DNA of 64,000 nt from an uncultured Gemmatimonadales bacterium (GCA_963741945.1 CAVUKA010000001.1:32001-96000), one strand, 5' to 3'. Numbered from the stretch's first letter, positions 10,643-30,170 are shown. Notes: generated from the sequence alone by a model not told the origin. Made by a program: numbers and translations.

Positions 10643-10765
10643 TCGGCCACAAACGTGGGCACGGAACTTGTGTCTGCGAGACCCGGCTTCCGGGCCGCCG
10701 GAAACGTACGCCGGCCCGCGGGGCGTGTAAAGAAACGGCGCCCCTTGCAACAGCGCTGGAGACAC

Positions 10766-12453: not shown

Positions 12454-12464
12454 GGGGGAACGGG

Positions 12465-13481
12465 ATGGAACGGGGGAAGCTGAACCGCGGGGGGCAGACG
12501 GCGCGTCGCGTGCGCGTGGGCATCCTGGCCGTCGTCTCCCTGCTCATCCTCGGCTACGGCATCTACGAGGTCGGGCGGCTGTTCGACGTCTTTGCCGAAC
12601 GCTACCCGCTCTACGCCATGGTCGAGAACTCCGGCGGGCTCATTGCCGGTGCGCCAGTGACGCTGGCCGGGCAGCGGATCGGCCAGGTGGACGCGATCAG
12701 GTTCATCCCCGTGGAGGAGCGGTCCGGAAATGCCAACATCAGCGTGCGCATCAGCGTGAGCGATGCGGTTCGCGACCAGATCCGCGAGGACAGTCGGGCC
12801 ACGCTCCGGACGCAGGGCCTGCTGGGGGACCGGTACGTGGACATCGCCCCCGGGAGCGCCAGCTCACCCATCCTCGGTCCCGGGGACACGGTTCCGACGG
12901 AGCCAGCCGTGGACTACGAGGAAGTGCTGCAGACGGCGTCGCAGGCGCTGGACCGGCTGCAGGGGATCATGGCGAACGTGGACACGCTGACGGCGCGGCT
13001 GACGCACGGAGAAGGGACGCTGGGCTCACTCATGACCGACGACCGGCTGTACGAGCGTATGGTCACGGCCACTACCGAGATGAGCGGACTGCTCCGAACC
13101 GTGAACCGCTCCGACGGGACCGTGAGCCGCCTCATCCGCGACCCGACACTCTACGACCGACTGGATGGGTCGCTGGCGCGATTCGACACTCTGCTTTCCA
13201 CGGTCACCGCGGGGCGTGGCACGCTGGGGCGGCTGGTGCGGGACGATTCCCTGTACCTGGAAGCGGCAGGCCTCCTGAGCCGGGCCGACTCGACGCTGTC
13301 GGGGGTGCAGGGATTCGTGGGCCAGCTCGGTCGCAGCAACGGAACGGTGGCCCGTCTCCTGGACGATCCGGCGCTGTACGACCAGCTGCTGAAGATGGTG
13401 GTGGACCTGCAGGGGCTGGTGGCTGAGATCCGGGCCGACCCGTCGAAGATCCGGCCCGAGGTCAAAGTGGACGTGTTCTAG
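12465..13481 (+). CDS. mlaD: MlaD/MCE family protein with long helical C-terminus
   Basis: N-terminal TM; MCE motif GLIAGAPVTLAG..IGQV and GLLGDRYVDI; four 'GT(L/V)xxLxxDxxLY' repeats. Confidence 0.88.
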   Translation: MERGKLNRGGQTARRVRVGILAVVSLLILGYGIYEVGRLFDVFAERYPLYAMVENSGGLIAGAPVTLAGQRIGQVDAIRFIPVEERSGNANISVRISVSDAVRDQIREDSRATLRTQGLLGDRYVDIAPGSASSPILGPGDTVPTEPAVDYEEVLQTASQALDRLQGIMANVDTLTARLTHGEGTLGSLMTDDRLYERMVTATTEMSGLLRTVNRSDGTVSRLIRDPTLYDRLDGSLARFDTLLSTVTAGRGTLGRLVRDDSLYLEAAGLLSRADSTLSGVQGFVGQLGRSNGTVARLLDDPALYDQLLKMVVDLQGLVAEIRADPSKIRPEVKVDVF

Positions 13482-14964: not shown

Positions 14965-17508
14965 TCAGCGCCCGACCATGCCCCGCATGCCACCGCTCAC
15001 GAGCGTGGCGACATTGGTGAGGACGCGAGGAAGCGCAAGACCGCCGGGGGAGGCGATGTAGCGGGGCTCCCAGACCGGACCGAACTTCTCCTTGTACTCG
15101 CGCAGCCCTTCGAAGTTGTAGAACTGCTCGCCGTGGTGGAACAGCGCGGCCCCGAGGCGTGCCCAGAGCGGTGCCAGGTGACGGTCCTCGAGTCCGGCGA
15201 GCGGCGCCATTCCGAGGCTGAACCATTCGAAGCCCGTCTTCTGTCCCCAGAGCAGGAGCTGGACGAACAGGAACTCCATGGTGCTGGGCGGGGCGCCTGC
15301 GGCATAGCGCATGAGGTCGACCGACAGCTCGTGGCGGTCCGCGCCCTGGAGGACGTTGGCGAACGCGACGATCTCGGAATCGACCTCCACGACGGCCACG
15401 TTGGTGGCCTGCAGGTACTCGGGCTGGAAGAAGCCGAGGGAAAAGCCTTTCTCCCGGGTGGCCTTGCCCTCGAGCCAGTCGTCGGAGATCGCGCGGAGCC
15501 GCGGCAGGACCGAGGGCACCTCGTCGGGCGGGAGGACGCGGAAGGCGCCCCCCCTCTCCTCCATCTTGCGGACGGTATAGCGCATCCCCTTGCGCCGCCC
15601 TCCCTCGAGGGAGAAGGAGGCGAGTGGAACGCGAGCCTCCTCGCCGATCTTGGTGAGCGCGAGTCCGAGGTCGATGTAGAGCGGCAGGTGCCCGGGCTCG
15701 ACCTGATAGAAGACGGGGTAGTCGCCGTGGCGATGCGCCTGCTCCAGGAACTGCCAGGCCAGCTCGCGCGCGGCCGGCGCGGGTCCGACGGGGTCGCCCA
15801 TGGCCACCCAGCTCCGGCCTTCCACGCCGTACATGACGAACGCGGTCCGATGGTCGTCGAACAGGAAGTGCTTGTCCCCGAGCAGGGCGAGCTGGGCATA
15901 GGCCCGTGGCGAAGCGCGAGCGATGCGGGTGGCCGTGTCCACGTCATCGGGGAGCGGGAGCAGCGCCGCCGGCCGCGCGGGGGTCAACAGCCTGGCGAGC
16001 GCGAACGTGCCCACGGCCGTGAGCGTGCCGACGGTGGCGCGAAGGAAGCGGGGTGCGTCGGCATCGCGGGCGAACCTCCACCAGAGCGCGTCGGTGTAGA
16101 CCACGTTCTTGTAGGCGAGGAGCCCGAGCCCGACCGTGGCGATGAGAGCGCCCACCACTGCGGCGGCCCAGGTGGCCGTGAACGGCTCTGCCATGAGCGA
16201 AGCGCGGCGATAGAACTCGCCCCGGCTGGCCACCAGGGCAGCGGTCGTGATGGCCAGAAAGATGGCCTCCTCGTAGTCCAGCCCCTTCAGGAGCGTGAAC
16301 ACGATCCCGGTGACCATCAGCGTCACCGCGAGGTGGTAGGCCGCGTCGAGCCGGCGCTGGATGCCCCAGGCCAGGACGAGCAGCCCGCCACCGGCCACGC
16401 TGGCAAGGAAGTGGGACGCCTCGATGAGTCCGAGCGGGAACACGTCGTTCAGCCAGCGCAGCCGTCCACCCATGGCGGGCGTGGAGCCTGAAAACAGGAG
16501 CACCAGCCCCGCCACGAAAGTGGCAATGGCCATGGCCTGCGGCACGACCACGGCCAGACCGCGGCCGACCACGCCCGCGGCGCGACCGATCTCCCGCCTC
16601 CGTCGTCCGGCTTCGAAAGCGCCGAGGGCTGCGACGGCGGCCAGGAGGGGCAGGAGGTAGTAGACGGCACGGTACACGAGGAGGGAGCCGAGGAGCGCGC
16701 CGTGCCCGATGTCGTCCGGAAGGAGCGTGAGGATCACGGCCTCGAAGACGCCGAGCCCTCCGGGCACGTGGCTGACGAGGCCAGCCACCTGCGCCAGGAG
16801 GAAGATCCCCAGGAAGCCGGGGTAGCTGAGGCCCGTGTGGGGAGGGAGGATCACGAAGAGAACGGCGGCGGCGGCCGCCCAGTCCGCCATGGAGACCACC
16901 AGCTGCGCCAGGGTCAGCGCGGGGCCGGGCGGCGAGATGCGCCATCCTCCCACCTGCATCCCGCCGCGTCCCCACACGCCCCAGAGGACGTACGCGGCAG
17001 CGAGGAGTGCGAAGACGATGCCGAGGGGGCGGGTGGGGAGGCCGAGCAGGCGCGGCAGGTGGACGGGCGAGAGGAACAGGGCCACGCCGCCGAGCGCCAG
17101 GAATCCGATCCAGAACGAGGCCGTGTAGAAGGCGACCAGGTCACGGATGCGGGCGGCTTCGACCTCCCAGGCGGTGTAGAGGCGGTAGCGGACGGGAGCC
17201 CCGGTGAGCAGCGGGAATCCGAGGGCATTGCTGAAGGCGTAGCCGATGAACGACGCGAGCGCGGTGCGGGCGTAGCGGAGCGGGTGCCCCGCGTAGCGGA
17301 GGCCGAGGGCGTCGTAGGTGCTCAGGATGAGGAAGCTTCCGATGGTGAGCAGGACCGCGAGCACCACGTGGCCGGCGGGGAGCGCGGCCACGGCCGTGCG
17401 GACCTCCGACCACCGGAACTCCCGCATCTCGTGATGGATGGCCAGGACCGCGACGACCAGGAACGGGAGCGCCAGCAGCGGTTCGAAACGCTTCCACCAC
17501 GACTTCAC
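14965..17508 (-). CDS. mprF: bifunctional aminoacyl-phosphatidylglycerol flippase/synthase
   Basis: Polytopic N-terminus with SHVPGGLGVFE; C-terminal DUF2156 domain with MGDPVG, KIGEEA, EKGFSLG, VDLMRY, FSLGMAPL, YNFEGLREYKEKF. Confidence 0.95.
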   Translation of the reverse strand: MKSWWKRFEPLLALPFLVVAVLAIHHEMREFRWSEVRTAVAALPAGHVVLAVLLTIGSFLILSTYDALGLRYAGHPLRYARTALASFIGYAFSNALGFPLLTGAPVRYRLYTAWEVEAARIRDLVAFYTASFWIGFLALGGVALFLSPVHLPRLLGLPTRPLGIVFALLAAAYVLWGVWGRGGMQVGGWRISPPGPALTLAQLVVSMADWAAAAAVLFVILPPHTGLSYPGFLGIFLLAQVAGLVSHVPGGLGVFEAVILTLLPDDIGHGALLGSLLVYRAVYYLLPLLAAVAALGAFEAGRRRREIGRAAGVVGRGLAVVVPQAMAIATFVAGLVLLFSGSTPAMGGRLRWLNDVFPLGLIEASHFLASVAGGGLLVLAWGIQRRLDAAYHLAVTLMVTGIVFTLLKGLDYEEAIFLAITTAALVASRGEFYRRASLMAEPFTATWAAAVVGALIATVGLGLLAYKNVVYTDALWWRFARDADAPRFLRATVGTLTAVGTFALARLLTPARPAALLPLPDDVDTATRIARASPRAYAQLALLGDKHFLFDDHRTAFVMYGVEGRSWVAMGDPVGPAPAARELAWQFLEQAHRHGDYPVFYQVEPGHLPLYIDLGLALTKIGEEARVPLASFSLEGGRRKGMRYTVRKMEERGGAFRVLPPDEVPSVLPRLRAISDDWLEGKATREKGFSLGFFQPEYLQATNVAVVEVDSEIVAFANVLQGADRHELSVDLMRYAAGAPPSTMEFLFVQLLLWGQKTGFEWFSLGMAPLAGLEDRHLAPLWARLGAALFHHGEQFYNFEGLREYKEKFGPVWEPRYIASPGGLALPRVLTNVATLVSGGMRGMVGR

Positions 17509-17568
17509 GGATCACGCCTCCGGTGTGGGATCAGGAGGGCCCCAATATGCGCAAGCGACGCGGCCGCG

Positions 17569-18885
17569 TCATCCCTGCCGGCCTGGCCGTCGCGAGCCGC
17601 GGCCTCCCACCTCACGCCAGACAGGGAGCAGGTCCTCCCGGACCACGTCCGCCCAGGTGGGCCAGATGCGCTCGATCCGCCGGCGGGCCGCAGCCCCGGC
17701 CGCCGCGCGGCGCGCTTCGTCCACGAGGAGCGGGCGCAACGCGGCCTCCCATGCTTCCACGGTGTCCTCCTCGACGATCACGCCCGCCGCCACCACGCCG
17801 ACCCGACCGGCACCGGCCACCCGCTCGGCGCAGGACGTCCCGGCCGCGACCACTGCCGGAAGACCGGAAGACAGCGCCTCGATGACCACGTTGCCGACCG
17901 TCTCGGAGCGGGATGGGAAGGCGAAGACATCGGCCGCGGAATACAGTTCGGCGAGGGCCTGCTGCGTGAGCACACCGAGGCACGACACGTCGCTTCCGAG
18001 CAGCGCTTCCAGGTCGGGCACCCGGGTTCCTTCTCCGGCCACCACGAAGTGAACCGAAACGCCCGTGTCCCGCAGCCGCCGGACCGCGCGGCCGGCCAGC
18101 ATCACGCCCTTGCTGTCGTCCACACGCCCCGCGAACAGGACCAGGGGAGAATCGGGGAGGCCATGGCGCTCGCGCACGGCCGCGGTGGCATGCGGGCGGG
18201 GTTGGAACCGGTCCCGGTTGACGCCCCGGCGAAGGCGGCGGATGCGGTCGGCCGGCACCACGTCCGCCGCCCAGCGGCGGTCGCGCGCATTGGACACGTA
18301 GATGATGCGGCTGTCGCGCATGATCCTCTCCACCCCCCGCCGCGTCGCGCGCGCCGCACGCTCGTGCAGCCGCAACCGGTCGAGGGCGAGATGGTCCAGC
18401 CGCAGGCGACCCGCGAGGCCATGCCCCAGGGCCCGGGTGATGATCCGCCGGGCATACACGCGAGTGAAGCGCGGGAGGTGCGTGTGCAGGGAGAAGACCA
18501 GGGGCAGCCCGGTGCGTGAGGCAATGCGGCGGGCCGTCCGTCCGAACGCGAAGGAATCGGTGGCATGGAGAACGTCGTGGCTCGGGAGGGCGCGCGCGAG
18601 GGCGGCGTGGTGCGGTGCGAGGTCCGTGTCCCCCGCGCCCTGCCTCAGGAGCGCGAATCGGTTGGTGCCGAGCCGGGGCGGGAGCGTGATGTAGCGGGTG
18701 GAGGGCCCGAGCGGCTCGGTGTCTTCGTGGTCGCCCAGGAAGTAGACGGTGAGGTCCAGCCCGGGCTCATCCACGGCCGCTTCGGCGAACCGCTCCCAGC
18801 ACTTGACGTGCCCGCCCGCCTCGGGTCCCCGCTGCAGCGTCACGAGCACCCCCACGGAAATGGGCAAGGGGGCGCGGGTGTTCAC
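17569..18885 (-). CDS. glycosyltransferase, GT4 (GT-B) family
   Basis: LFAGRVDDSKG, ADVFAFPSRSETVGNVVIEALSSGLP (EX7E). GTG start overlaps the squalene synthase stop (GTGA). Confidence 0.88.
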   Translation of the reverse strand: MNTRAPLPISVGVLVTLQRGPEAGGHVKCWERFAEAAVDEPGLDLTVYFLGDHEDTEPLGPSTRYITLPPRLGTNRFALLRQGAGDTDLAPHHAALARALPSHDVLHATDSFAFGRTARRIASRTGLPLVFSLHTHLPRFTRVYARRIITRALGHGLAGRLRLDHLALDRLRLHERAARATRRGVERIMRDSRIIYVSNARDRRWAADVVPADRIRRLRRGVNRDRFQPRPHATAAVRERHGLPDSPLVLFAGRVDDSKGVMLAGRAVRRLRDTGVSVHFVVAGEGTRVPDLEALLGSDVSCLGVLTQQALAELYSAADVFAFPSRSETVGNVVIEALSSGLPAVVAAGTSCAERVAGAGRVGVVAAGVIVEEDTVEAWEAALRPLLVDEARRAAAGAAARRRIERIWPTWADVVREDLLPVWREVGGRGSRRPGRQG

Positions 18886-19838
18886 GCGGGGCGGAAGGCC
18901 GGCGCGTCGTCCTGCTGGAGGCGGATGACGGGCCGTCCGAGGCGGAGGTCTGCCTTGAGACGCGCCATGATGGCCCACACCCTGGTGCGCGAGATCTTGC
19001 TTCCCGGTCCGTCCTCCTCCACACGGTCGAGCGTAGCCATCGCCAGGAGCACTGGCAGGGCATTGAAGGCCACGATCCCATCGGCGGCGCCGGCGGCCTG
19101 GAGAGCCAGCGTGTACTCGGCCGCCTGCCGGAGGTCGCCGCGCGCGAGCCTGAACAGCTCACCCCGCGCCACGGACTCCGGGACCAGGGCCCTGCCCTCG
19201 CGTACGTCCGCGGAGGCGTCCCGGAGCACGTTCACCAGCTGGAGCGCTTCACCGAACGCGCGCGCCCTGCGCCGGAGCCTGGGTCCGAGGCCATCATCGG
19301 CGCAATCGAGCAGGAAGAGCTCGGTCAGCATCTCGCCGACGATGCCCGCCACGGCGTAGCAGTACGCGCGCAGCTCCTCGAGATCGCGCAGGCGCAGGAC
19401 GCCATCGGCGTCGGCGCGCCGAAGGAAGGAGGCCATGCCGCGGCACGTGCGGACCGTGTGGCTCGCGATGATGTGGGCGGCATCCTCCCGCGTCTCCGCG
19501 AGCGCTTCGAAAACGATGGGGGCTTCCCGGAGCAGGTGCAGGTAGCCGTCGTGCTCCACGGGCGCGTTCTCGCTCCATGCGCGGGCGAGCGCCCGCATGC
19601 GGAGCGGCCCCGCATCCGTTTCCAGGGCGCGGGCCATCCGCTCGAGAGCATCGATCCGCTCCTGGACGGGCCACCGGGTGGAGTCCTCGAACGTATCGGC
19701 GATGCGGAAGAGAAGGTACGCTTCCGTGACTTCGGTACAGAGAGGGTCGGGAAGCAGCGGGATCGCCAGTGCGAACGTGCGACTGGTCTCCTCCAGGAGC
19801 GACTGCAGCTGCTCGGCGCGGGGGGTTGCAGTGTTCAT
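18882..19838 (-). CDS. squalene synthase (single-enzyme farnesyl-diphosphate farnesyltransferase type)
   Basis: TSRTFALAI, YLLFRIADTFED, YCYAVAGIVG, LQLVNVLRDASAD; lies in the shc operon. Confidence 0.85.
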   Translation of the reverse strand: MNTATPRAEQLQSLLEETSRTFALAIPLLPDPLCTEVTEAYLLFRIADTFEDSTRWPVQERIDALERMARALETDAGPLRMRALARAWSENAPVEHDGYLHLLREAPIVFEALAETREDAAHIIASHTVRTCRGMASFLRRADADGVLRLRDLEELRAYCYAVAGIVGEMLTELFLLDCADDGLGPRLRRRARAFGEALQLVNVLRDASADVREGRALVPESVARGELFRLARGDLRQAAEYTLALQAAGAADGIVAFNALPVLLAMATLDRVEEDGPGSKISRTRVWAIMARLKADLRLGRPVIRLQQDDAPAFRPA

Positions 19839-19863
19839 GGCTCTCCCGGTGCACGGAACGTTG

Positions 19864-20688
19864 TCATGGCACCACGATCGTGCCGGACACGGGGGCACCC
19901 GCCAGGAGGCGGTCCAGTACACCCGGCGCGGCGCCCTGGCCGATCCACGACGGGATGCCGGCGCGGGCGAGGCCCAGGGCCGCATCCACACGGTGCCGCA
20001 TGCCTCCCGTCACATCCGGCGCGTCCGCGCCGCCAGCCGCCTGGAGCAGGAGATCGGCGTCCCCTACGGGGATCCGCTCCAGGACATCACCCTGCTGCGA
20101 CAGGACGCCGGCCGTGGCTCCGAGCCAGAGACAGCGACGAACGTGCCAGCCGGCCGCGCTCAGGGAGTCGGCCACAGCCCCCAGCGCCGTCTCGGTGGAG
20201 CAGATCGAGGCGCCCCGGACCCGGTCCAGCACGACATCGCCGTAGACAACGGGCATGAAGCCCCGCTCGAGAGCCATGCGAACGGTTCCGTCGTGGAAAT
20301 GCTCGATCCGTCCGTCCGAGGCCACAGCGATGGCCGAGGGCGGGATGGAGAAGGGCGCAGCGCCAGCCGAGAGCAGCGAATCCACCACGATCCTGTGGAG
20401 CTCGGCCGCCGCTCGCTGCACGCGGGCGACGTCGGCGGGGAGCGCCGGGGTGTCTCCGGGGCCGCCCTCGAGACCGCGAAGTCCGGCGTGCACGGCTTGC
20501 GGGTGCCCGAACGACCCGCTGCCGTGCCCCACCACGAGATGGTGCCCCGCGTCCCGGGCGCGGGCCAGCTGTTCGGCAAGGCGCCGGATGACGGCCGGGC
20601 GTGGCGTGCCCGGCGTCCGCTTGTCGGTGATCAGGCTGCCACCGAGCTTGACCAGGATGAGGTCCCGATCCACGTCTCCCCCCGTCAC
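19864..20688 (-). CDS. ipk: isopentenyl phosphate kinase (amino-acid kinase family)
   Basis: LVKLGGSLITDK, HGSGSFGH (IPK-diagnostic His), PVVYGDVV, ICSTE, DVTGGM. Confidence 0.88.
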   Translation of the reverse strand: MTGGDVDRDLILVKLGGSLITDKRTPGTPRPAVIRRLAEQLARARDAGHHLVVGHGSGSFGHPQAVHAGLRGLEGGPGDTPALPADVARVQRAAAELHRIVVDSLLSAGAAPFSIPPSAIAVASDGRIEHFHDGTVRMALERGFMPVVYGDVVLDRVRGASICSTETALGAVADSLSAAGWHVRRCLWLGATAGVLSQQGDVLERIPVGDADLLLQAAGGADAPDVTGGMRHRVDAALGLARAGIPSWIGQGAAPGVLDRLLAGAPVSGTIVVP

Positions 20689-21716
20689 AACAGGTGCTCC
20701 ACGGAGCCGGCGGGACCCTCGCCGACACGATCGCGGATGACGCGCTGCACACCCGCCACCCCCGCGAGACGGCGAGCCACGACGTCCTCCGCGTCCTGCT
20801 CGCAGAGAACGTGCACGTTCGGCCCCGCGTCCAGCGTGCTGAACGCGGGGACGCCATCGCGGCGGAGCGCCTCGACAGCTTCGAGCACGGCTACCGTGGC
20901 CGGACGCCAGTAGCGGATCGGTGGCCGCGAGGACATGGCAATGAGGTGGAGGTCCATCGCCTCCTCTTCCAGCATTTCGCCCAGCTGCGGGAAATCGCGC
21001 TGCCGGATGGCGTCGCGCACGCGAGACAGCCGACCATCCAGGAGCGCGAGGCGACGCTCAAAGTAGGGGCTGGTGAACGCGCGGCGGTGACCCTCGCGGG
21101 ATGAGACTTTCTTGGGCGCCGGATCGGCGATCGCGATCACGTCGGAGATTGCCCAGTGCGACGCGGGGGCCAGCAGCTCCAGCTCGGTGGCGCCCTGCGC
21201 GGACCCCGGCCGCCATTCCACGAAGCCGCCGACGACCGATCGGGCGGCGGAGCCGGAGCCGGAGGCGCGGGCCAGATCCGAGAGCCGGTCGGTATCCAGG
21301 TCCAGTCCGAATGCCTGCGTCGCCGCGTGCGTCACGGCGGCGAAGATCGCCGATGACGACGCCAGGCCGGCGGCCACCGGGAAGTCCACCCCTACGGCCA
21401 CGTCCGCCCCGCCCGCCCCGCCCGCGCGCTCCACGATGCCCCGGACGTGGGCGGCCACGGGGTCGCGCAGCGGGGGCGGGGCGTCGGTGAGCGGGTTTGC
21501 GCTGGATCGCCGGTGGCGGAAGATGCGAATGGATCCCCCCTGGCGGGGGCGCACCGTGCAGGTGGCGGTGCATTCGGTCAGCGTCATGGAGATGGACGGA
21601 TTGAGCGGCAGCCCTGCCCCGGGATCCCGTGATCCCCAGTACTTGATGAGCGCAATGTTGGCGGGAGCGGTCCACGTCGACACCTGGAGTGCGGGGCGTG
21701 CGCTCACGCCGCTCAT
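20685..21716 (-). CDS. mvaD: mevalonate (di)phosphate decarboxylase, probably mevalonate-5-phosphate specific
   Basis: APANIALIKYWG, PLNPSISMTL, GLASSS, SGSAARS, STLDAGPNVH. Confidence 0.9.
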   Translation of the reverse strand: MSGVSARPALQVSTWTAPANIALIKYWGSRDPGAGLPLNPSISMTLTECTATCTVRPRQGGSIRIFRHRRSSANPLTDAPPPLRDPVAAHVRGIVERAGGAGGADVAVGVDFPVAAGLASSSAIFAAVTHAATQAFGLDLDTDRLSDLARASGSGSAARSVVGGFVEWRPGSAQGATELELLAPASHWAISDVIAIADPAPKKVSSREGHRRAFTSPYFERRLALLDGRLSRVRDAIRQRDFPQLGEMLEEEAMDLHLIAMSSRPPIRYWRPATVAVLEAVEALRRDGVPAFSTLDAGPNVHVLCEQDAEDVVARRLAGVAGVQRVIRDRVGEGPAGSVEHLL

Positions 21717-22825
21717 GCGACCTCCAGCCCGGGGCCCCCGAACGCGGCATCGACCGGCCTGATGTCGCGCAGGAAGTCCCAGCCGGCAATGCGCCGCGGG
21801 TCCTCATGATGCACGAGGATCATCCCCGCCCCCAGGGCGCCATCGGTTCCGTCGCACAGGCCGCCCGCGCCGGAGACCTTGGCCGCGCCACCCTCGGCCT
21901 CGACCCGCCGGATGATTCGGGTGGCCGCGGGCGGGACCACACCCAGCGCTTCGAGGGCCGACTCGAACGACCTGACGGCCGCGCCCACGGCGGCCGGGTC
22001 GTGGCCCGTGGCGAGGCCGTTCGCGAATCCGCGGGCCAGCTCACCCATTCGCTCGAGCTCGGCCTCGAGCCCGCGGTCCGCTTCAAGGCGACGGCGGACC
22101 GCCGCCACCACCTCACCCGTCCCGTGCGCCGGGCAGCCGCTGTCGTACGCCCGGAAGTGGGCGAGAGCGCGCGGGTCCGCGGCCAGGGGGCGGAAGCGCA
22201 GCCTGGCCCCCGGCTCCGCCGCCTCGGCGCGAATGACGCCGCCCCGGAGGACCGTCGCCCCATCGATCCCGGAAGGCGACCCGTGCTGCCGCCGCTCGAC
22301 CTCATGCGCCGCCGCTTCGAGGTCGGACGAGGGCGGATCCACACCGGCGGCGGCGCACACCGCGGCGATCAGGGAGAGGGCCAGCGCGGCGGAGCTGCCC
22401 ATGCCGTGGCCCACGGGGATATCGCTGTCCACCAGCACCTCCAGCGGCGGCGGGGTCCGCCCGAGGAGGTCGACGGCCGTCCCCAACGCGACCAGGGCGA
22501 GGTAGTGCCCGTCGCCCGCGCTCCGGGCGTCGCCCGGACCAGCCTCTCCGGCGGTGCGCGCCGCCTCCGTCCAGGTGAGCGTGACCGGGCGTCCACCGGG
22601 CAGCCTCAGGACCAGGACCGCCTCGGCCGCGGCCGTCGCACTGGCGATGGGCCTGGCGCGAACGCGCAGGCGGCGCTGCACGGCGGCGGCCACGGCCGGG
22701 TGGCCGTAGACCACCGAATGCTCGCCCATGAGGATGAGCTTGCCTGGCGCGGACGCGGAGGCGTCGCGCGGGACGCCGGTGAGGCCAACCGGGTCGCGAC
22801 CGGACGCGGTCACCGGAGCGGTCAT
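21713..22825 (-). CDS. mvk: mevalonate kinase
   Basis: APGKLILMGEHSVVYG, PVGHGMGSSAA, HGSPSGID, KVSGAGG. Confidence 0.92.
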   Translation of the reverse strand: MTAPVTASGRDPVGLTGVPRDASASAPGKLILMGEHSVVYGHPAVAAAVQRRLRVRARPIASATAAAEAVLVLRLPGGRPVTLTWTEAARTAGEAGPGDARSAGDGHYLALVALGTAVDLLGRTPPPLEVLVDSDIPVGHGMGSSAALALSLIAAVCAAAGVDPPSSDLEAAAHEVERRQHGSPSGIDGATVLRGGVIRAEAAEPGARLRFRPLAADPRALAHFRAYDSGCPAHGTGEVVAAVRRRLEADRGLEAELERMGELARGFANGLATGHDPAAVGAAVRSFESALEALGVVPPAATRIIRRVEAEGGAAKVSGAGGLCDGTDGALGAGMILVHHEDPRRIAGWDFLRDIRPVDAAFGGPGLEVA

Positions 22826-22826
22826 C

Positions 22827-24185
22827 TCATCCGGCCAATTCCGCTTCCGCGGCCGTGCCCGCCCTGCCCAGGCGCTCGTGCGCCCTCGCCAGGTCGCGAG
22901 ACGTGAGGGCGGCCAGCAGCGAGAGCTCGCCCGCCAGGACGGTGGCGCCCAGCGCTTCGGCGAGCCGGAGCGCTCCGACTCCTGGATTGTCAGGATCGGG
23001 CAGAGCGCCGATCAGGGCGAGGGCCTCGTTCTGCGTGGCCAGCCCGGTGCCACCACCCACCACGCCCACGGGGGCATCGGGCATGGAGATGGACACATAG
23101 ACGGCATCGTCGCCGCGCGGCTCGATGCACGTGATCCCCAGCGCGGCTTCGGCCACCTGCGCGGGGTCCTGCCCCGTGGCAATGAACAGCGCGGCCGCCA
23201 GATTGGCGTAATGGGCGTTGAAGCCGAGGGAGCCGGCGGCCGCGGAGCCCAGCAGGTTCTTGCGATACTGCACCTCGACCAGCGGCGCGGCGCTCGTCTT
23301 CAGGTAGCGCTGCAGGATCTCGCCGCTCAGGACCACTTCGGCGAAAATCCGTTTCCCCCGTCCTTCCCGGGCGTTGATGGCGGACGGCTTCTTGTCCACG
23401 CCGTAGTTCCCGGACAGAGAAACGCACTCGGCGCCCGTGGCGGGCTCGATGAGCTCGGTCACGATCCGATCCGTGGCGATTGTGGCCATGTTCATCCCCA
23501 TGGCATCGGCCGTGGAGAAGCGGAAGCGGAGAAAGAGAGAGCTGCCCACGGCCTGGGAGCGCACATCCAGGAGTTGGATGTAGCGGCTGTCGCGCTCCGC
23601 CACCGCGCGCATCTCTTCGAGGTGGGACTCCACCCATGCTTCCACCCGGCGTGTGTGCTCGATGCCGTGGGTCCGGAACACGGGGGCCCGGGTCATGCCG
23701 ACGTCCTCGACCTCCACGGTGGCTCCGCCCGCGGCGCGGATCGCGGCGCAACCGCGGTTGGTGCTGGCGAGGAGGGCCCCTTCGGTGGTGGCGAGGGGGA
23801 CGAAGAGCGGCTCGCCGCGGCCGCGGATCGGCAGCGGCCCGACCACGCCCACGGGCACCTGCGCGACGCCCACGAAGTTCTCGCAGTTGTACCTGGCCGC
23901 GCGCTCGGCATCGAGGCTGTAGTGGCCCGTGTGGTCGAGCCTCACGCCCGTCATCCGGGTGAGAGCCTGACGGCGCAGATCGGCGGCGGTGGCGGCATCC
24001 ACGGTATCGGGGAGCCGGTGGAGCGCCCGCTTGCCTGTCGCCATGTCGTGGACGAGCGCTTCCTCGGCGGGGTGCCGCCTTTCCGGGCGGCGGCCGTTTC
24101 CATTGCCGTTGCCGTTTCCGTTTCCTGAGCCGTTGCGCAGGTGCGCCTCGGGCGGAGTCTTCGATACGGGAGTCCGTCGCTTCAT
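22827..24185 (-). CDS. hmgA: hydroxymethylglutaryl-CoA reductase, class I (NADPH)
   Basis: CENFVG, PLATTEGALLAS.NRG, DAMGMNM, SGNYGVDKKPS, ATGQD.AQ, GELSLLAAL..LARAH. Confidence 0.93.
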   Translation of the reverse strand: MKRRTPVSKTPPEAHLRNGSGNGNGNGNGNGRRPERRHPAEEALVHDMATGKRALHRLPDTVDAATAADLRRQALTRMTGVRLDHTGHYSLDAERAARYNCENFVGVAQVPVGVVGPLPIRGRGEPLFVPLATTEGALLASTNRGCAAIRAAGGATVEVEDVGMTRAPVFRTHGIEHTRRVEAWVESHLEEMRAVAERDSRYIQLLDVRSQAVGSSLFLRFRFSTADAMGMNMATIATDRIVTELIEPATGAECVSLSGNYGVDKKPSAINAREGRGKRIFAEVVLSGEILQRYLKTSAAPLVEVQYRKNLLGSAAAGSLGFNAHYANLAAALFIATGQDPAQVAEAALGITCIEPRGDDAVYVSISMPDAPVGVVGGGTGLATQNEALALIGALPDPDNPGVGALRLAEALGATVLAGELSLLAALTSRDLARAHERLGRAGTAAEAELAG

Positions 24186-25219
24186 GGCTGTACTTCCTTC
24201 CGGATGGCAATTCGGCTCAGTGCGCCCAGGTCCCCGGCGCCGCTGCAAAGCATGGCTACACGCAATTCCTGCACGATACGGCGGATCCGGTCTTCCACGG
24301 CGGCCGCGGACTCCCGGGCAGGTCCCAGGAACGGCTGGGCGAGTCCGGCGAGGGAAGCGCCCAGGGCCACGGCCTTGGCCACGTCAATGCCAGTGCGCAC
24401 ACCGCCACTGCCGATCACCGTGAGGCCCTCGATGGCGGCCACCTGTCGGATGGCGTCGGGCGTGGGAATTCCCCAGCCGGCGAAGCGCTCCCCGAGCTCC
24501 GCGTCGGGCGCGCGCCGGCTCTCGATGCGCGCCCAGCTGGTGCCGCCGAGACCGGCCACGTCCACGACAGTGACGCCCGCCTGCTGGAGCCGGGCCGCGA
24601 CGGGGCCGGAGATGCCGCAGCCGATCTCCTTGGCGATCACCGGGACATCGAGTCCGTCCACGACCTCGGCGATGCGGTCCAGGAGCCCGGTAAAATCCGT
24701 GTCTCCCTCGGGCTGGATCGCTTCCTGTAGGACATTCAGGTGGAGCACGAGGGCGTCCGCGCCGATCATCTCCACGGCCGCGCGGCACTCGTCCACGCCG
24801 TAGCCGTGGTTGAGCTGGACGGCGCCGAGGTTGGCGAGCAGCGGCACGTCCGGCGCCACGGCCCGGACCTGGAACGTCCACGCGAGCGATGGGTCCTCCA
24901 CGGCGGCGCGCTGGGAGCCCACGCCCATGGCAACGCCAGCGGCCTGGGCGGCGGCGGCCAGGTTGCGGTTGATCGAGCCGGCCTCCTCGGTGCCGCCGGT
25001 CATGCACGAGATCACCAGAGGGGCACGCAGAGGTCGACCGAGGAAGGTGGTGCTCGTGTCCACCCCGTTCAGCGCCAGGTCGGGCAGCGCGTCGTGCTCC
25101 AGCCGCCACTGGTCGAAGTAATGGGTCCCCAGCTGATTCCGTCCATCCTGCGCGAGGCGGAGATGCTCCGCCTTCCGCTGCGATGTCGCGGGCTGGAGGT
25201 CCTGCTCCACAGTACTCAT
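24182..25219 (-). CDS. fni: type 2 isopentenyl-diphosphate delta-isomerase
   Basis: RKAEHL, ISCMTGG, GVGSQR, NLGAVQL, HLNVLQEAIQPEGD, KEIGCG, GGTSWA, SGGVRTG. Confidence 0.95.
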   Translation of the reverse strand: MSTVEQDLQPATSQRKAEHLRLAQDGRNQLGTHYFDQWRLEHDALPDLALNGVDTSTTFLGRPLRAPLVISCMTGGTEEAGSINRNLAAAAQAAGVAMGVGSQRAAVEDPSLAWTFQVRAVAPDVPLLANLGAVQLNHGYGVDECRAAVEMIGADALVLHLNVLQEAIQPEGDTDFTGLLDRIAEVVDGLDVPVIAKEIGCGISGPVAARLQQAGVTVVDVAGLGGTSWARIESRRAPDAELGERFAGWGIPTPDAIRQVAAIEGLTVIGSGGVRTGIDVAKAVALGASLAGLAQPFLGPARESAAAVEDRIRRIVQELRVAMLCSGAGDLGALSRIAIRKEVQP

Positions 25220-25950
25220 GCTCGCTTTCCGCTCAGGCTTTCTTCTGTCCCGACAGCCGGTGCGGCTGCCGCAACGATCTTCGGGATGGCTCTGGCCAGC
25301 GCCCGGCCCCCGGCGCGGGCCCGGCGCGCCAGTCCCAGGAGTGCCGGGATGCGGCCGGGGTGACGCAGGGCGCCGAAGGCCACCGCGGACCGGGAAACCG
25401 CCCCATCCCCACCCTGCGGGGCCTCCAGCCACACGGGGAGGTAGTCATCCACCCCGTCGCTCACCGCCCGCACGGCCAGCCATGGTACACCCTCACCCTC
25501 CGCCGCGTCCACACACGCGGCGGTCTCCAGGTCCACCAACCCCGTAGCGGCGACAGGGATCCCCACGAGCCGGCGCATACGGTCCCGCTCCAGCGGCGTC
25601 CGCGCAAGACCGGTGGCGCTGACCAGAATGGCGTCGGCGAAGCCGGCGCGCCGCGCCCGGTCCAGGATCTCCGCTTCTGGCCGCCGAACGGGCCCGGCCA
25701 CGCGCCGGAGCTCACGGACCACCCGCACCTCCCCGGCGGCCACGGTCCGGGTAAGAGCGCCGGCCAACCCCGCCACCACGAGCAGTCGCGGCCGGTGCTC
25801 GGACAGCAGCCGGCGAGTGCTCGCGGCGGCGGCCCCCGCCCCGTCGCCCGTGGTCGCGACCACGATGTCCCGGTTCGCGCGGAGGGCCCGGCGCACGGGC
25901 CGGGCTTCCTCCGGCAGGGCGGTCACCACGAGCACCGGTCCCGGGGTCAT
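25216..25950 (-). CDS. hpnG: hopanoid-associated nucleoside phosphorylase (HpnG-like)
   Basis: PNP/MTAN motifs ALPEEA, GLAGAL, VDLETAA, VRAVSD; follows hpnH-hpnA; ATGA overlaps at both ends. Confidence 0.8.
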   Translation of the reverse strand: MTPGPVLVVTALPEEARPVRRALRANRDIVVATTGDGAGAAAASTRRLLSEHRPRLLVVAGLAGALTRTVAAGEVRVVRELRRVAGPVRRPEAEILDRARRAGFADAILVSATGLARTPLERDRMRRLVGIPVAATGLVDLETAACVDAAEGEGVPWLAVRAVSDGVDDYLPVWLEAPQGGDGAVSRSAVAFGALRHPGRIPALLGLARRARAGGRALARAIPKIVAAAAPAVGTEESLSGKRA

Positions 25951-26942
25951 GACGCATACCCCCGCTCCCGGAACCACTGGACCGCCCGCGCGGCGGCATC
26001 CTCCACCGGGTGCTGCGGCAATCCCAGCTCCCGCACGGCGCGGCTCGCGTCGAAGTACATGGGAAGCGCGGACATGCGCACCGCCTCCGCGGTGAGGCGT
26101 GGCTCCCGGCCGCGCACATTCGCCAGGGCGGTCTCGGCGTGGGCGGCCATGAGCGGCATCCAGCGCGGCACTCGCACCCGCGGCGGCTCGAGGCCGGCCA
26201 CCCGGGCCAGCATGGCGAACAGTTCCCGGAACGTGAAGTTGCGCGCGCCCAGAATGTAGCGGCGTCCGGGCGCGCCGTGCTCCTCGGCGAGAATGTGGCC
26301 AGCGGCAACATCCTTCACGTCCACCACATTCAGCCCACCTTCGACGTACGCGGGAATGCGGCCGTTGAGGAAGTCCACCACCATCCTGCCGGTGGGCGTC
26401 GGCTTGGCGTCCCACTCCCCGATCGGCGTGGACGGCGAGACGATGACCACGGGCAGGCCGCGGCGGTTCCAGGCCTCGGCAACCCGCTCCGCCTGGTACT
26501 TGCTCCGCTTGTACGCACCGACGAGCTCGTCGGGATCGGGAAGCGATTCCTCGTCGGCGGGCGACGCGGGCGTCTCGCCTCCCGCGAGCGCGCCCACGGA
26601 GCTCGTGTACACGACGCGCTTCACGCCGGCATCCGCGGCAGCCGCGAGCAGGGCGGCGGTCCCGTCCACGTTGGTGCGGAACACCTCGCGGGCGAGATGC
26701 GCGCCGAAGCGGTAGTCGGCGGCGCAGTGGAAGACGGTGCGCGCCCCGCTCACCGCCGGCGGCAGCGTCTCCGGGCGCGTGAGGTCGCCCTCGACCAGCT
26801 TGACGGGGAGCCCTTCCAGCGCCTCGCGGCTGCTGCCCGGGCGCACCAGGCAGCGCACCGGGTCGCCGCGGTCGACGAGCGCTCGCACCACGTGGGTTCC
26901 GATGAACCCTGTGCCGCCGGTTACGAAGACTGGGGCGGTCAC
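25947..26942 (-). CDS. hpnA: hopanoid-associated NAD-dependent epimerase/dehydratase
   Basis: VTGGTGFIG, FHCAADYR, YTSSV, YKRSK, PSTPIGEWDAKPTPTG. Confidence 0.9.
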   Translation of the reverse strand: MTAPVFVTGGTGFIGTHVVRALVDRGDPVRCLVRPGSSREALEGLPVKLVEGDLTRPETLPPAVSGARTVFHCAADYRFGAHLAREVFRTNVDGTAALLAAAADAGVKRVVYTSSVGALAGGETPASPADEESLPDPDELVGAYKRSKYQAERVAEAWNRRGLPVVIVSPSTPIGEWDAKPTPTGRMVVDFLNGRIPAYVEGGLNVVDVKDVAAGHILAEEHGAPGRRYILGARNFTFRELFAMLARVAGLEPPRVRVPRWMPLMAAHAETALANVRGREPRLTAEAVRMSALPMYFDASRAVRELGLPQHPVEDAAARAVQWFRERGYAS

Positions 26943-26948
26943 GTCGGC

Positions 26949-27950
26949 TCAAGCAGAGATCTGCCAGAGCGCCATCCTGGCGATGTCACGAGGGCTCCTG
27001 GACACCTCGCGCACGGCGGACGCTTCGAAGCCCGAGTGCATCTTGCAGTTCTGGCACCGGCGGTCCTGTCGCGACTCCCAGTACTCCCAGTCGGTGTTGT
27101 TCCAGAACTCGTCGAAATCGTCGTAGTAGTCCTGCCCGATCAGGTAGCAGGGCGCCTTCCAGCCGCGCGGCGTGTAGGTCACCGTGCTCCACGGCGAGCA
27201 GTCCAGGTCACGCAGGCCGGCGGCGAACTCCATGAAGACGGGCGTGGAGGTGATGGGGTAGCGATCGGCGAACTCGCGCACGCGCTTGAACTTCTCCTCG
27301 ATCTCCTGCCGCGTCATGAAGACGTCCTTCTCCACCGATTCGTAATGGTAACCCGGTGCGATCATCATCCCGTCCACGCCAAGGCTCGTGCACAGCTCGC
27401 AGAGCTCCTCGACCTCATCCACGTCCGTCTGCTTGTAGATCGTGGTGTTGGTCAACGTGTGATAGCCGCGCGCCTTGGACTCCTTGATCATCTCGATGGC
27501 ATGATCGAACACGCCTTCCCGATCCGTCACGAAGTCGTGGGTCTTCCGCATCCCGTCCAGGTGGATATCAATGCTCAGCCGCTTGTTGGGCGGGATCTTG
27601 TCGAAGACCTTGTCCAGCCGCAGCGCGTTCGTGCACAGGAAGATGTGTCGCTTCCGGTCGATGATGCCCTCGATCAGCTCCGGCAGCTCAGGATAGAGCG
27701 TGGGCTCGCCGCCGATCACGGAGACCGCAGGCGCGCCGCTGTCGTCCACAGCCTTCAGCGCCCGGTCCACGGACATGCGATCGGAAAGCTTGCCCGTGTG
27801 CCGCTCGAGGGCACACCCCACACACGCGAGATTGCAGGTGTAGAGCGGTTCGAGCATCAGCACGGATGGATAGCGCTTGTTCCTCTTCAGCGCATTGGAC
27901 ATCTGGTGCTTGATGTTGTCGGCGATCATGTGAGGCGGAAATCGCATCAT
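26949..27950 (-). CDS. hpnH: adenosyl-hopene transferase, radical SAM
   Basis: YPSVLMLEPLYTCNLACVGC (CxxxCxxC), GGEPT, CTNAL, CSPWS..TP.GWKAPCY, CQNCKMHSGFE. Confidence 0.92.
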   Translation of the reverse strand: MMRFPPHMIADNIKHQMSNALKRNKRYPSVLMLEPLYTCNLACVGCALERHTGKLSDRMSVDRALKAVDDSGAPAVSVIGGEPTLYPELPELIEGIIDRKRHIFLCTNALRLDKVFDKIPPNKRLSIDIHLDGMRKTHDFVTDREGVFDHAIEMIKESKARGYHTLTNTTIYKQTDVDEVEELCELCTSLGVDGMMIAPGYHYESVEKDVFMTRQEIEEKFKRVREFADRYPITSTPVFMEFAAGLRDLDCSPWSTVTYTPRGWKAPCYLIGQDYYDDFDEFWNNTDWEYWESRQDRRCQNCKMHSGFEASAVREVSRSPRDIARMALWQISA

Positions 27951-30025
27951 CGGTACTCCTCGGGTTCAACGGATGCCCACCGGGCGAGCGCCAGCAGGGG
28001 GAAATAGTCGTCGTACATGTGGTACTGCAGGTAAAAGACCTTCGGGAACCCGGTCGCGGTCCACGGCTCGTCGTGCCACGATCCGTCCTCGCGCTGTGTG
28101 CGCAGCAGGTAGGCCAGCCCGGCGCGCGCGGAAGCGGAGCCACGGTCTCCGGCGGCGTGCAGCGCCAGGAGCGCCCAGGCGGTCTGTGCGGCGGTGCTGG
28201 GTCCCACACCCCGCCTGCTCCGGTCCCAGTAGGAGGCCTGCGTCTCACCCCAGCCCCCGTCCTCGTTCTGCCGCTCCCGGAACCAGCACCGGCAGCGCGC
28301 CACCGGGCCTGTCTCCACGTCCTCGCCGGCCGCGGCCAGGCCGGTCAGGGCCAGCCAGCTGCCGTAGATGCGGTTGCACCCCCAGCGTCCGTACCAGGTG
28401 CCATCGCTGTCCTGGCGGTCCAGGATGAACGAGACCGCGCGACGGATCACCGGGTGCTGCGGATCCATCCCGTTCGTCACGAGCATGTCGATGATCCGGC
28501 CGGTGATATCGACCGAGCTCGGGTCGAGCATGGCGTTGTGGTCCGCGAAGGGGACGTGGACGAGGGGGCGGAAATCGCAACTGCGGTCGAACGCGCCCCA
28601 CCCCCCGTCGTCGTTCTGCATGGTCAAAAGCCATTCCAGCCCACGGCGGCGGGCGGCGCTGATCCGGTGGACGTCCCCCACCCCGGCCTGATCGAGAGGG
28701 CGGAGCGCTTCCAGCACCTCAGCGGTGTCATCACAATCAGGGTAGAACTCGTTGGCGTACTCGAAATACCATCCGCCGACGGGTCCATCGGGATTGCCGT
28801 AGCGCCAGTCACCGGCGGCCGTCACCTCCCGGTCCAGGAGCCACTCGCTGGCGCGAAGGAGCGCGGGATGGTCCGGCCGGACGCCCGCGGCGCTGAGGGC
28901 GGCCATCGTCTGGGCGGTGTCCCAGACGGGCGAAAGTGATGGCTGCAGCTGGAGCGTGTCGCCGTGGTCGACCTCCAGCTTCTCCATGGCCGCGTGCTGG
29001 GCGGCCAGTGCCGGGTGGTCATCGTCGTAGCCGAGGCAGCGCATGGCCATGATGACATTGGCAATGGACGGGAAGACGGCGCCGAGTCCGTCCGTGCCCT
29101 CGATCCGCTCCAGCATCCAGCTCTCCGCGGCGTCCAGCGCCCTCTGCCGCAGGGGCGTGAAGCGAGCCCGCTCGATCCTTCGAAGGCCCGCGTCCGCCGC
29201 CCGGAAGAACACGCCCCACGCGCGGGCACCGACGCCGAAGTCGGCGTGGATGTCCACGGCCGCGTCGTCGCCATCGGGGTCGTCCGGGTGGGACGGCACG
29301 GTGTCGAGCGCCGGTTCGGCGCCGCCGGTGCGGATGTCGTGGAGCTCCGCGGCGGCCGGGATCGCCACGCGCGGCCGGAACGCCCAGATCACGGAAAGAG
29401 GGACGAAGATGGAGCGGCTCCAGGACGACATCCGGTCCACGTGGAAGGGGAACCAGCGCGGCAGGAGCATCATCTCCGGAGGGATGGCGGGACAGCGATC
29501 CCAGTCCCACTGCCCGAACATGGCCAGGTAGACGTGCGTGTACGTGTTGGCCGCCGGAATCCCGCCCAGCGCCCGGATGACCCCGCGAGCCGTGCGCATG
29601 TGCGGGGCGTCCGGATCCTCACCCTCCAGCTTGAGCGCGAAGTACGCCTTGATGGACGCGCTCACGTCCGGTGGACCGCCGGGGTACATCGCCCAGCCAC
29701 CGTCCTCGGTCTGGAGTCCGCGCAGGCGACGCACCGCCTTCCGGGCCTTCGGTCCACCCCCGCGCCCCAGGAAGTGCTGCATCAGCACGTACTCGGACTC
29801 GAGGATGCTGTCCCCCTCCAGAACGCCGCACCAGTGTCCGTCCGGCTGCTGCTCGCGCAGCAGGTTGTCCCGCGCCCGGCCCACCGCGCTCTCGATCGCG
29901 TCCGCTGCGTCAGTGCCGGCGCGGCTCGCCGTCGCGACCCCGGTCCGCGGCATGGACCACGCGCGGGATCGCTCGACGCCGCCCGGGCGTTCAGTCCGAG
30001 TCTTCTGCACCCGGCGTGAAGCCAT
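27947..30025 (-). CDS. shc: squalene-hopene cyclase
   Basis: Several QW repeats (QQPDGHW, QTEDGGW, QNDDGGW, QDSDGTW, QNEDGGW, QREDGSW), SPVWDTA, catalytic YPDCDDTA (DxDD, SHC type), TGFPKVFYL; RBS GAGGA before ATG 30025. Confidence 0.96.
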   Translation of the reverse strand: MASRRVQKTRTERPGGVERSRAWSMPRTGVATASRAGTDAADAIESAVGRARDNLLREQQPDGHWCGVLEGDSILESEYVLMQHFLGRGGGPKARKAVRRLRGLQTEDGGWAMYPGGPPDVSASIKAYFALKLEGEDPDAPHMRTARGVIRALGGIPAANTYTHVYLAMFGQWDWDRCPAIPPEMMLLPRWFPFHVDRMSSWSRSIFVPLSVIWAFRPRVAIPAAAELHDIRTGGAEPALDTVPSHPDDPDGDDAAVDIHADFGVGARAWGVFFRAADAGLRRIERARFTPLRQRALDAAESWMLERIEGTDGLGAVFPSIANVIMAMRCLGYDDDHPALAAQHAAMEKLEVDHGDTLQLQPSLSPVWDTAQTMAALSAAGVRPDHPALLRASEWLLDREVTAAGDWRYGNPDGPVGGWYFEYANEFYPDCDDTAEVLEALRPLDQAGVGDVHRISAARRRGLEWLLTMQNDDGGWGAFDRSCDFRPLVHVPFADHNAMLDPSSVDITGRIIDMLVTNGMDPQHPVIRRAVSFILDRQDSDGTWYGRWGCNRIYGSWLALTGLAAAGEDVETGPVARCRCWFRERQNEDGGWGETQASYWDRSRRGVGPSTAAQTAWALLALHAAGDRGSASARAGLAYLLRTQREDGSWHDEPWTATGFPKVFYLQYHMYDDYFPLLALARWASVEPEEYR

Positions 30026-30130: not shown

Positions 30131-30170
30131 AAAAAAAAACGGCGTCCGCGTGGAACACGCCCAGACGCCG
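30131..30170 (-). terminator. intrinsic terminator-like hairpin plus U9 upstream of shc
   Basis: Minus strand CGGCGUCU-GG-GCGUG-UUC-CACGC-GGACGCCG followed by nine U. Confidence 0.75.

Follow-up and report, generated by a model that had tools for sequence, protein, structure and literature searches.

A five-gene mevalonate cassette embedded in a hopanoid gene cluster of an uncultured Gemmatimonadales bacterium

Organization of the cluster

The DNA considered here (the window, 64,000 nucleotides in all; GCA_963741945.1, CAVUKA010000001.1:32001-96000, or G000:C1:32001-96000 where genomes, contigs and loci are numbered with G, C and L) belongs to the 4.09 Mb genome of an uncultured Gemmatimonadales bacterium, which is assembled in 8 contigs with 70% G+C and is 96.7% complete. 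On the minus strand, from position 30025 to 17569, eleven open frames follow one another in the order shc-hpnH-hpnA-hpnG-fni-HMGR-mvk-mvaD-ipk-sqs-GT4, so that a five-gene mevalonate cassette (fni to ipk) lies between hopanoid genes and a gene for a putative squalene synthase. Genes were named by profile searches with TIGR, NF and Pfam models, with bit scores compared to the curated cut-offs, and start codons were chosen from Pfam and profile coverage and from purine-rich stretches upstream; the resulting gene ends agree with those of the initial annotation, made from the sequence alone.

30142..30158, minus strand: hairpin with a T8 run after it, in the interval separating shc from the upstream gene, from a scan for terminator-type sites
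27947..30025, minus strand: shc, squalene-hopene cyclase (SHC); ATG at 30025, giving 692 aa; both SQHop_cyclase Pfam domains, and TIGR01507 at 636 bits (cut-off 431)
26949..27950, minus strand: hpnH, radical-SAM adenosylhopane synthase; TIGR03470 355 bits against 225, Radical_SAM and DUF3463 domains
25947..26942, minus strand: hpnA, hopanoid-associated SDR/epimerase-like protein; TIGR03466 418 bits against 368
25216..25950, minus strand: hpnG-like nucleosidase of the PNP_UDP_1 family, named by position; PF01048 36.6 bits
24182..25219, minus strand: fni, type 2 isomerase of isopentenyl diphosphate (IPP) and dimethylallyl diphosphate (DMAPP), first gene of the cassette; TIGR02151 383 bits against 281
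22827..24185, minus strand: class I 3-hydroxy-3-methylglutaryl-CoA (HMG-CoA) reductase (HMGR); PF00368 381 bits, TIGR00533 428 bits against a cut-off of 442
21713..22825, minus strand: mvk, mevalonate kinase of the GHMP family; TIGR00549 and PF00288
20685..21716, minus strand: mvaD, predicted phosphomevalonate decarboxylase (PMD); closest solved chain 6n0x
19864..20688, minus strand: ipk, isopentenyl phosphate kinase (IPK); NF040647 130 bits against 120
18882..19838, minus strand: sqs, predicted divergent Sqs-type squalene synthase, 318 aa; PF00494 118 bits, best model squalene synthase
17569..18885, minus strand: GT4 glycosyltransferase; Glycos_transf_1 and Glyco_transf_4 domains, overlapping the sqs stop by 4 bp

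The eleven co-directional genes of the initial annotation, in their order and at their coordinates, are borne out by the profile matches and by the spacing of the frames. Seven of the ten junctions are 4-bp ATGA or GTGA overlaps, hpnH overlapping shc in this way, and short gaps separate the genes at the other three: 6 bp at hpnH/hpnA, 1 bp at HMGR/mvk and 25 bp at ipk/sqs. The G+C content at third codon positions (GC3) lies between 0.83 and 0.90 in the eleven frames, as in the remaining window, and the catalytic motifs are intact: the DxDDTA protonation motif of SHC reads DCDDTA at residue 430, the CxxxCxxC motif of HpnH reads CNLACVGC, the first Asp-rich motif of Sqs is DTFED, and IPK has the His-bearing motif GSGSFGH. 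The gene order is far beyond chance. It recurs in two phyla, with shc and/or hpnH upstream of the cassette in 17 of the 61 related loci that have enough flanking sequence.

The hairpin at 30142..30158 is a possible 5′ boundary of the unit. The region has 5 terminator-like sites where chance predicts 4.2, which leaves the scan with little weight; that the coding strand has no such site from 30025 to 17569 is likewise a weak test. The scan of the region for promoter-like sites returned 0, and it too carries little weight.

Hopanoid genes, squalene synthase and glycosyltransferase

A genome-wide search found shc to be the sole SHC gene, and the slot occupied by the hpnG-like gene is conserved in relatives at 26-57% identity. 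The squalene synthase assignment draws on comparison with solved structures, in which squalene synthases (56 and 44 bits) lead the matches of Sqs in the Protein Data Bank (PDB), with a phytoene synthase at 34 bits and dehydrosqualene synthases also behind. In the second Asp-rich motif, DASAD of Sqs aligns with DVRED of the solved squalene synthase 7wgh. Only two SQS_PSY genes occur in the genome, the cluster sqs and a crtB in a carotenoid cluster. Because the other gene is CrtB, no HpnC or HpnD is present among the SQS_PSY genes (HpnE was given no separate search), and the cluster Sqs is by gene content the only candidate squalene synthase of the genome.

The CrtB phytoene synthase shares a single 810-aa open frame with a prenyl diphosphate synthase (L084 3794-6226; G000:C5:95793-98225), possibly encoding a fusion protein, and the frame adjoins CruF-like and CarH-like genes in what looks like a light-regulated carotenoid cluster.

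The final gene of the run, GT4, was considered as a hopanoid glycosyltransferase and rejected, as it is not conserved in relatives: its sole match among 80 related loci, in L001, has 27% identity and lies on the opposite strand.

The cassette probably specifies a decarboxylate-first mevalonate route

MvaD looks, by sequence, like a PMD, and is predicted to prefer mevalonate 5-phosphate (MVA5P) as its substrate. The closest solved chain, 6n0x, is the PMD of Anaerolinea thermophila with MVA5P bound (PMC9254496, legend to Fig. 5) and is matched at 226 bits, compared with 155 bits for the best diphosphomevalonate decarboxylase (MDD) in the PDB comparison. In Table 4 of Dellas et al. 2013, the Lys of the YWGK motif is a conserved MDD residue for which mevalonate phosphate decarboxylases (MPDs) have a replacement (PMC3857490). 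Ser29 of MvaD occupies this position, where Lys is found in 0 of 70 related loci. His210 is kept, matching wild-type 6n0x and all 67 of the 67 sequences covering the site (the variant chain 6n0z has Met there), as is the catalytic Asp296 (66/66 covered sequences). The positions of Table 4 were placed by motifs, not by aligning the S. epidermidis enzyme, and two of the Chloroflexi marker positions deviate in MvaD, with Gly for the listed Arg/Thr and Ser for the listed Ala. The curated models weigh against a PMD, as MvaD scores 128 bits against a cut-off of 475 with the haloarchaeal PMD model NF040704 and passes the MDD model TIGR01240 with 189 bits against 171.

The top seven PDB matches of IPK are IPKs or an IPK-like protein, and the best solved relative of HMGR is the HMG-CoA reductase 6hr7, at 357 bits. 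There are five GHMP-family genes genome-wide (mvk, mvaD, ispE, galK and a galK-like gene), and no phosphomevalonate kinase (PMK) was found among these five in the 96.7%-complete genome; the animal-type PMK model PF04275 also gave no match, a result that is uninformative because the controls were blank as well. A PMD-like MvaD and the lack of a detected PMK therefore point to an MVK-PMD-IPK route of the type known from haloarchaea and Chloroflexi, in which decarboxylation would come first and phosphorylation second. The main archaeal route through trans-anhydromevalonate 5-phosphate is disfavored because the cassette includes a homologue of the DMD/PMD decarboxylases, as the pathway is presented in the relevant part of PMC9254496. 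The pathway had initially been called archaeal-style, a description that stands for the haloarchaeal and Chloroflexi combination of PMD with IPK and fails for the main archaeal anhydromevalonate route.

Isoprenoid genes elsewhere in the genome

Profile searches of the whole genome recovered the methylerythritol phosphate (MEP) pathway with all scores above cut-off (dxs 788, dxr 424, ispG 390 and ispH 235 bits, plus ispE), and by its gene set the organism has both isoprenoid pathways, MEP and mevalonate. A search for dxs, dxr, ispG and ispH had been suggested in the initial annotation; since all are present, MEP coexists with the cassette and a division of labor between the pathways is possible. 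The genome also encodes an archaeal-type HMG-CoA synthase (HMGS; TIGR00748, 501 bits against 353), followed by a thiolase and a DUF35-like protein, at C1:1254425-1257090 (L081 5425-8091). Three prenyl synthases are encoded in the genome, none of them in the window.

Distribution and conservation of the arrangement

Relatives were collected with the HMGR protein as query against a single genome for each species, which gave 80 loci: 65 from Acidobacteriota (mostly Thermoanaerobaculia and Holophagales), 12 from Gemmatimonadota, 1 from Pseudomonas and 2 unlabelled. The closest, L001, comes from a Gemmatimonadota metagenome-assembled genome (MAG; G156), with an HMGR of 75% identity, and ten genes of the window cluster recur in it, with identities of 57-83%. 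All five cassette genes stand in the order fni-HMGR-mvk-mvaD-ipk in 62 of the 80 loci, contig ends cutting most of the others, and sqs follows the cassette in 50 of 55 loci with enough flank. The two phyla differ in what precedes the cassette. Hopanoid genes lie upstream in 10/11 Gemmatimonadota loci versus 7/47 acidobacterial loci, the remaining 40 of the 47 having the cassette without upstream hopanoid genes, and in 41 of 44 acidobacterial loci sqs accompanies the cassette. Common in the lineage, the layout is a conserved arrangement under selection.

In L010, the one member checked of a Gemmatimonadales group, a prenyl diphosphate synthase gene (4189-5388) lies between hpnG and fni and a gene for an MMPL/HpnN-like transporter (10792-13542) between ipk and sqs, making that cluster more self-contained than the one in the window. 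The Pseudomonas fluorescens record (L017, 10001-13300) has an HMGR of 59% identity together with mvk and mvaD related to those of the cassette, and no match to fni or ipk; its decarboxylase also lacks the MDD Lys, with Met instead.

A second sample consisted of 151 evenly drawn Gemmatimonadota genomes, with G000 counted and with G057 and G097, both flagged as unpublished, included in the tallies but behind no claim about a named genome. IPK scores above cut-off in two of them, G000 and G086, and these are exactly the two genomes in which shc adjoins HMGR; the layout in G086 is that of the window. A full-length SHC match occurs in 6/151 genomes (G000, G086, G084, G110, G144 and, weakly, G071). 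Among these, G144 (L087 11137-16730) and G110 (L088 11791-17381) hold a contiguous shc-hpnH-hpnA-hpnG-sqs run with no cassette, and G084 has the order sqs-shc-hpnA-hpnH and no hpnG match. A second copy of ispH lies 2-6 kb from shc in G084, G110 and G144 (~6 kb in the latter two).

The Pfam HMGR model matches in 20 of the 151 genomes, a count that was rejected as a measure of mevalonate pathway frequency because nine of the ten neighborhoods examined contain a solitary HMGR; IPK is the better marker. The solitary genes encode class I HMGR homologues 36-41% identical to that of the window (L091-L097, L099 and L100, from G132, G106, G016, G122, G053, G138, G045, G083 and G104), and neither mvk, mvaD, ipk, fni or sqs within ~10 kb of them nor IPK anywhere in their genomes was found. 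The HMGS-positive and HMGR-positive sets of the 151 genomes meet in G000 and G018 only.

A proposed co-expressed three-module unit supplying a shared pool

We favor a reading of the cluster as a tightly packed, probably co-transcribed membrane-lipid unit of three modules, whose cassette raises the supply of IPP for squalene and hopanoids through co-expression and a shared pool. We infer co-transcription, the activities of the enzymes, the origin of HMG-CoA and any split between the two pathways, and assign the reading as a whole a probability of roughly 0.55. The first module, shc-hpnH-hpnA-hpnG, would take squalene to hopene, adenosylhopane and ribosylhopane. The second, fni-HMGR-mvk-PMD-ipk, would convert HMG-CoA to IPP and DMAPP with decarboxylation before the second phosphorylation, and the third would be the single-enzyme, Sqs-type squalene synthase. 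This three-module build is suggested because the modules are found apart and together in other genomes: hopanoid and sqs genes without the cassette in G144 and G110, cassette and sqs in the acidobacterial loci, and all three modules in 17 of the 61 loci with enough flank. The HMG-CoA would most likely be provided by the distant trio of archaeal-type thiolase, HMG-CoA synthase and DUF35 protein, and farnesyl diphosphate (FPP) by a prenyl synthase encoded outside the cluster.

A shared IPP pool fed through co-expression is favored because the genome also has the MEP pathway, and nothing at the locus points to a private channel to squalene. The cassette would thus feed the common pool, with supply rising in step with squalene and hopanoid synthesis, and the hopanoids of this organism would probably be wholly or partly mevalonate-derived.

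Several observations weigh against the proposed unit or against parts of it. Three of its members score below their curated cut-offs: mvk with 149 bits against 163 (TIGR00549), sqs with 83 against 287 (TIGR01559) and hpnG with 62 against 187 (TIGR03468). An HpnN-like exporter was not found in the genome, where the best match reaches 32 bits against a cut-off of 752. With respect to a private supply, the HMG-CoA synthase and thiolase genes are 1.2 Mb from the window and not in the cluster, and the candidate FPP synthase, an ispA-like gene, is located 131 bp upstream of dxs on another contig and is not linked to the cluster. The archaeal-type HMGS is itself only loosely associated with the cassette, as it occurs in 22/151 Gemmatimonadota genomes, 21 of them without IPK, and was not found in the cassette-bearing G086; on both counts it was ruled out as a marker of the cassette. 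Its role may lie outside the mevalonate pathway, and other sources of HMG-CoA are conceivable, leucine breakdown for example.

Alternative explanations

The alternative that survives best, although we consider it rather improbable, is that the cassette is a general or co-equal source of IPP whose proximity to the hopanoid genes is historical only, the block having been inherited or transferred whole in a lineage midway through replacement of MEP by mevalonate synthesis. The distribution of MEP genes speaks for this explanation. MEP looks ancestral in the phylum, with ispH in 148/151 Gemmatimonadota genomes (G086 gave no match). Among the 11 Gemmatimonadota genomes with the full cluster, complete ispG and ispH are present only in G000 and G156, the source of L001; in the other nine, ispH and full ispG were not found, a result that cannot be read as absence since the completeness of these MAGs (drawn from G151-G171) is not established. 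Short N-terminal ispG fragments are all that was seen in G158 (C113:1903-2136) and G166 (C166:1502-1591 and C168:3-92), and these may be remnants of a MEP pathway since lost, or else artefacts of contig ends. With the same caveat on MAG completeness, five large Acidobacteriota genomes that have the cassette and no adjoining shc hold ispH in 0/5 cases and a true SHC in 1/5. Judged by this gene content, most carriers must rely on the cassette as their general IPP route, and it appears to be the sole route in nine of the eleven full-cluster Gemmatimonadota genomes because ispG and ispH were not found there. The phylogenies described below, in which the cassette-linked cyclases are a single clade and HMGR monophyly is not rejected, are also in keeping with inheritance of the block as a unit. 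Against a purely historical synteny, all tested MEP markers are full length in G000 and in the genome of L001, and the tight overlaps with shc and sqs have been kept in two phyla, which suggests selection for co-expression.

A strictly dedicated supply, with the cassette used only for squalene and hopanoids and MEP reserved for quinones, carotenoids and bactoprenol in the manner of Streptomyces terpenoid clusters, we regard as unlikely. It accords with the presence of both pathways, with the physical position of the cassette between hpnG and sqs, and with the company the IPK-type cassette keeps in Gemmatimonadota, where it goes with hopanoid genes in the 10/11 loci noted above and in 2/2 genomes of the phylum sample. 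Among Acidobacteriota whose hopanoid genes are joined to the cassette, moreover, 5/6 genomes hold both ispG and ispH. A dedicated hopanoid module was the proposal of the initial annotation, and as stated it is unsupported, for the cluster includes no FPP synthase, HMG-CoA synthase or thiolase. IPP and DMAPP are soluble, and the ispA-like gene adjoins dxs. Relatives weaken the proposal further: where neither ispH nor full ispG was found, in nine of the eleven full-cluster Gemmatimonadota, the cassette must serve all isoprenoids, and most acidobacterial loci lack hopanoid genes upstream of the cassette.

We consider it very improbable that the block, or the cassette within it, was acquired and now lies silent or decaying without a role: MEP makes the cassette dispensable in principle and some members fall below curated cut-offs, but all eleven frames are open, with GC3 as in the window and intact catalytic motifs, and L001 retains the same ten genes.

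History of the block

In a tree of 20 SHC rows, the nine cassette-linked Gemmatimonadota cyclases are a single clade with a Shimodaira-Hasegawa-like approximate likelihood ratio (SH-aLRT) of 99, and the cyclases of the cassette-less genomes G110 and G144 fall outside it. In the HMGR tree (82 rows), the window and L001 pair at 100, apart from other Gemmatimonadota; the backbone of this tree is unresolved, and monophyly of the Gemmatimonadota sequences is not rejected by the approximately unbiased (AU) test (p = 0.214). For these two reasons a scenario of differing histories for shc and HMGR was dropped. The block looks, from these trees, old within a Gemmatimonadota sublineage and not recently imported into this genome.

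A broader scenario, which we put forward tentatively, is that the hopanoid-squalene block brought the PMD/IPK pathway into Gemmatimonadota and the ancestral MEP pathway was subsequently displaced, with G000 and L001 representing a surviving dual-pathway transition in which shc, sqs and the cassette would share a transcript. If the block was the vehicle, the hopanoids of abundant soil Gemmatimonadota and Thermoanaerobaculia would have a mevalonate-type isotope and labelling signature, unlike the MEP type assumed for bacteria.

Genomic surroundings

Beyond GT4, a 60-bp gap is followed by a gene on the same strand for an MprF-like protein (17508-14965) of the aminoacyl-phosphatidylglycerol synthase type, so that the run extends past sqs across positions 14965-18885 (minus strand). 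The added GT4 and MprF-like genes suggest that the membrane-lipid operon is larger in this genome, and in this one alone. Lipid genes are numerous in the window (9740-13481, plus strand; 37576-41245 and 43198-52955, minus strand) and include MlaE/MlaD-like genes, a trio encoding PqiA, MlaD-domain and ABC-auxiliary-lipoprotein components, and a 2690-aa KS-AT-ACP-KR-DH synthase resembling those for polyunsaturated fatty acids or polyketides, which adjoins an acyl-CoA dehydrogenase. Two large tricorn-like proteases are encoded at 34021-37431 (minus strand) and 55880-60574 (plus strand), each with PD40, Tricorn_C1, PDZ_Tricorn and Peptidase_S41 domains.

Implications

Hopanoids are major bacterial biomarkers, and the pathway that supplies their C5 units, MEP or mevalonate, shapes their isotope patterns in both carbon and hydrogen. 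Soils and sediments commonly harbor Gemmatimonadota and Thermoanaerobaculia, and if the hopanoids of these groups are mevalonate-derived, the assumption that a bacterial hopanoid means MEP fails for part of the environmental pool. The genomes compared here also provide a natural series for pathway replacement, with both pathways in the present organism, the cassette only in most cluster-bearing relatives, and the hopanoid cluster without the cassette in some. The main interest of the window genome is its natural dual-pathway state, which makes it a test case.

Comparison with known systems

In MEP-bearing Streptomyces, mevalonate clusters are attached to terpenoid gene clusters, operate by the classical PMK/MDD route and serve secondary metabolites. 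The likeness to the window lies in a MEP-bearing bacterium with an additional mevalonate set beside the genes for one terpenoid product; the differences are that the predicted route in the window is PMD/IPK and that its product would be a membrane lipid. The accessible sections of a 2026 review of dual-pathway bacteria mention neither Gemmatimonadota nor Acidobacteriota (PMC13001223).

The closest counterparts of the cassette as a pathway are those of Chloroflexi. The pathway type exemplified by the MPD and IPK of Roseiflexus castenholzii (PMC3857490) and by the PMD of Anaerolinea thermophila in 6n0x shares with the cassette the set of MVK, a PMD-like enzyme, IPK and type 2 isomerase with no PMK. 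The window differs in its host, a member of Gemmatimonadota, in the placement of the cassette inside a hopanoid operon and in the coexistence of MEP. Hoshino and Gaucher 2018 describe the MPD route as confirmed only in halobacteria and Chloroflexi, with Gemmatimonadetes, Acidobacteria and hopanoids nowhere named in the main text (PMC6107057). The present data would extend the decarboxylate-first route, at the level of sequence, to two more bacterial phyla, where the portions of the literature searched place it, among bacteria, in Chloroflexi only.

As a hopanoid locus, the window shares the core of shc, hpnH, hpnG and hpnA with the canonical hpn clusters of Zymomonas, Rhodopseudomonas palustris and Burkholderia and with the ispA-shc-hpnH and hpnA-hpnG blocks of Acidobacteriota. 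Canonical clusters also carry genes for precursor supply, ispA or ispH, in the examples given in PMC5462960, and the second ispH copies near shc in G084, G110 and G144 may be compared with these. The window departs from the canonical arrangement in having one predicted Sqs-type enzyme in place of HpnCDE and a five-gene mevalonate supply in place of MEP, with no hpnN found.

The nearest published relative of the whole arrangement is an acidobacterial MAG of subdivision SD22, "Mor1", described by Sinninghe Damste et al. 2017 as having shc, hpnH and a Sqs-like gene, no HpnCDE and no MEP genes; most mevalonate genes are colored on the same gene map in Fig. 7, and the relevant passage has bacteriohopanepolyol (BHP) synthesis proceeding "in a completely different way" (PMC5462960). 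Mor1 resembles the window in combining shc, hpnH, a Sqs-like gene and mevalonate genes on one map in the absence of HpnCDE, and differs in its phylum and in having no MEP genes, which the window genome has. The part of that paper concerned with Mor1 gives no PMD/IPK route, operon packing or spread of the layout. The initial annotation had named documented commonness in the lineage as a finding that would refute its proposal; at the level of genomes the arrangement is indeed common (in those 10 of 11 Gemmatimonadota loci), and it has appeared once, in passing, in print (PMC5462960). The layout is real and not unique, of a kind glimpsed before in the literature, widespread in its lineage and under-described.

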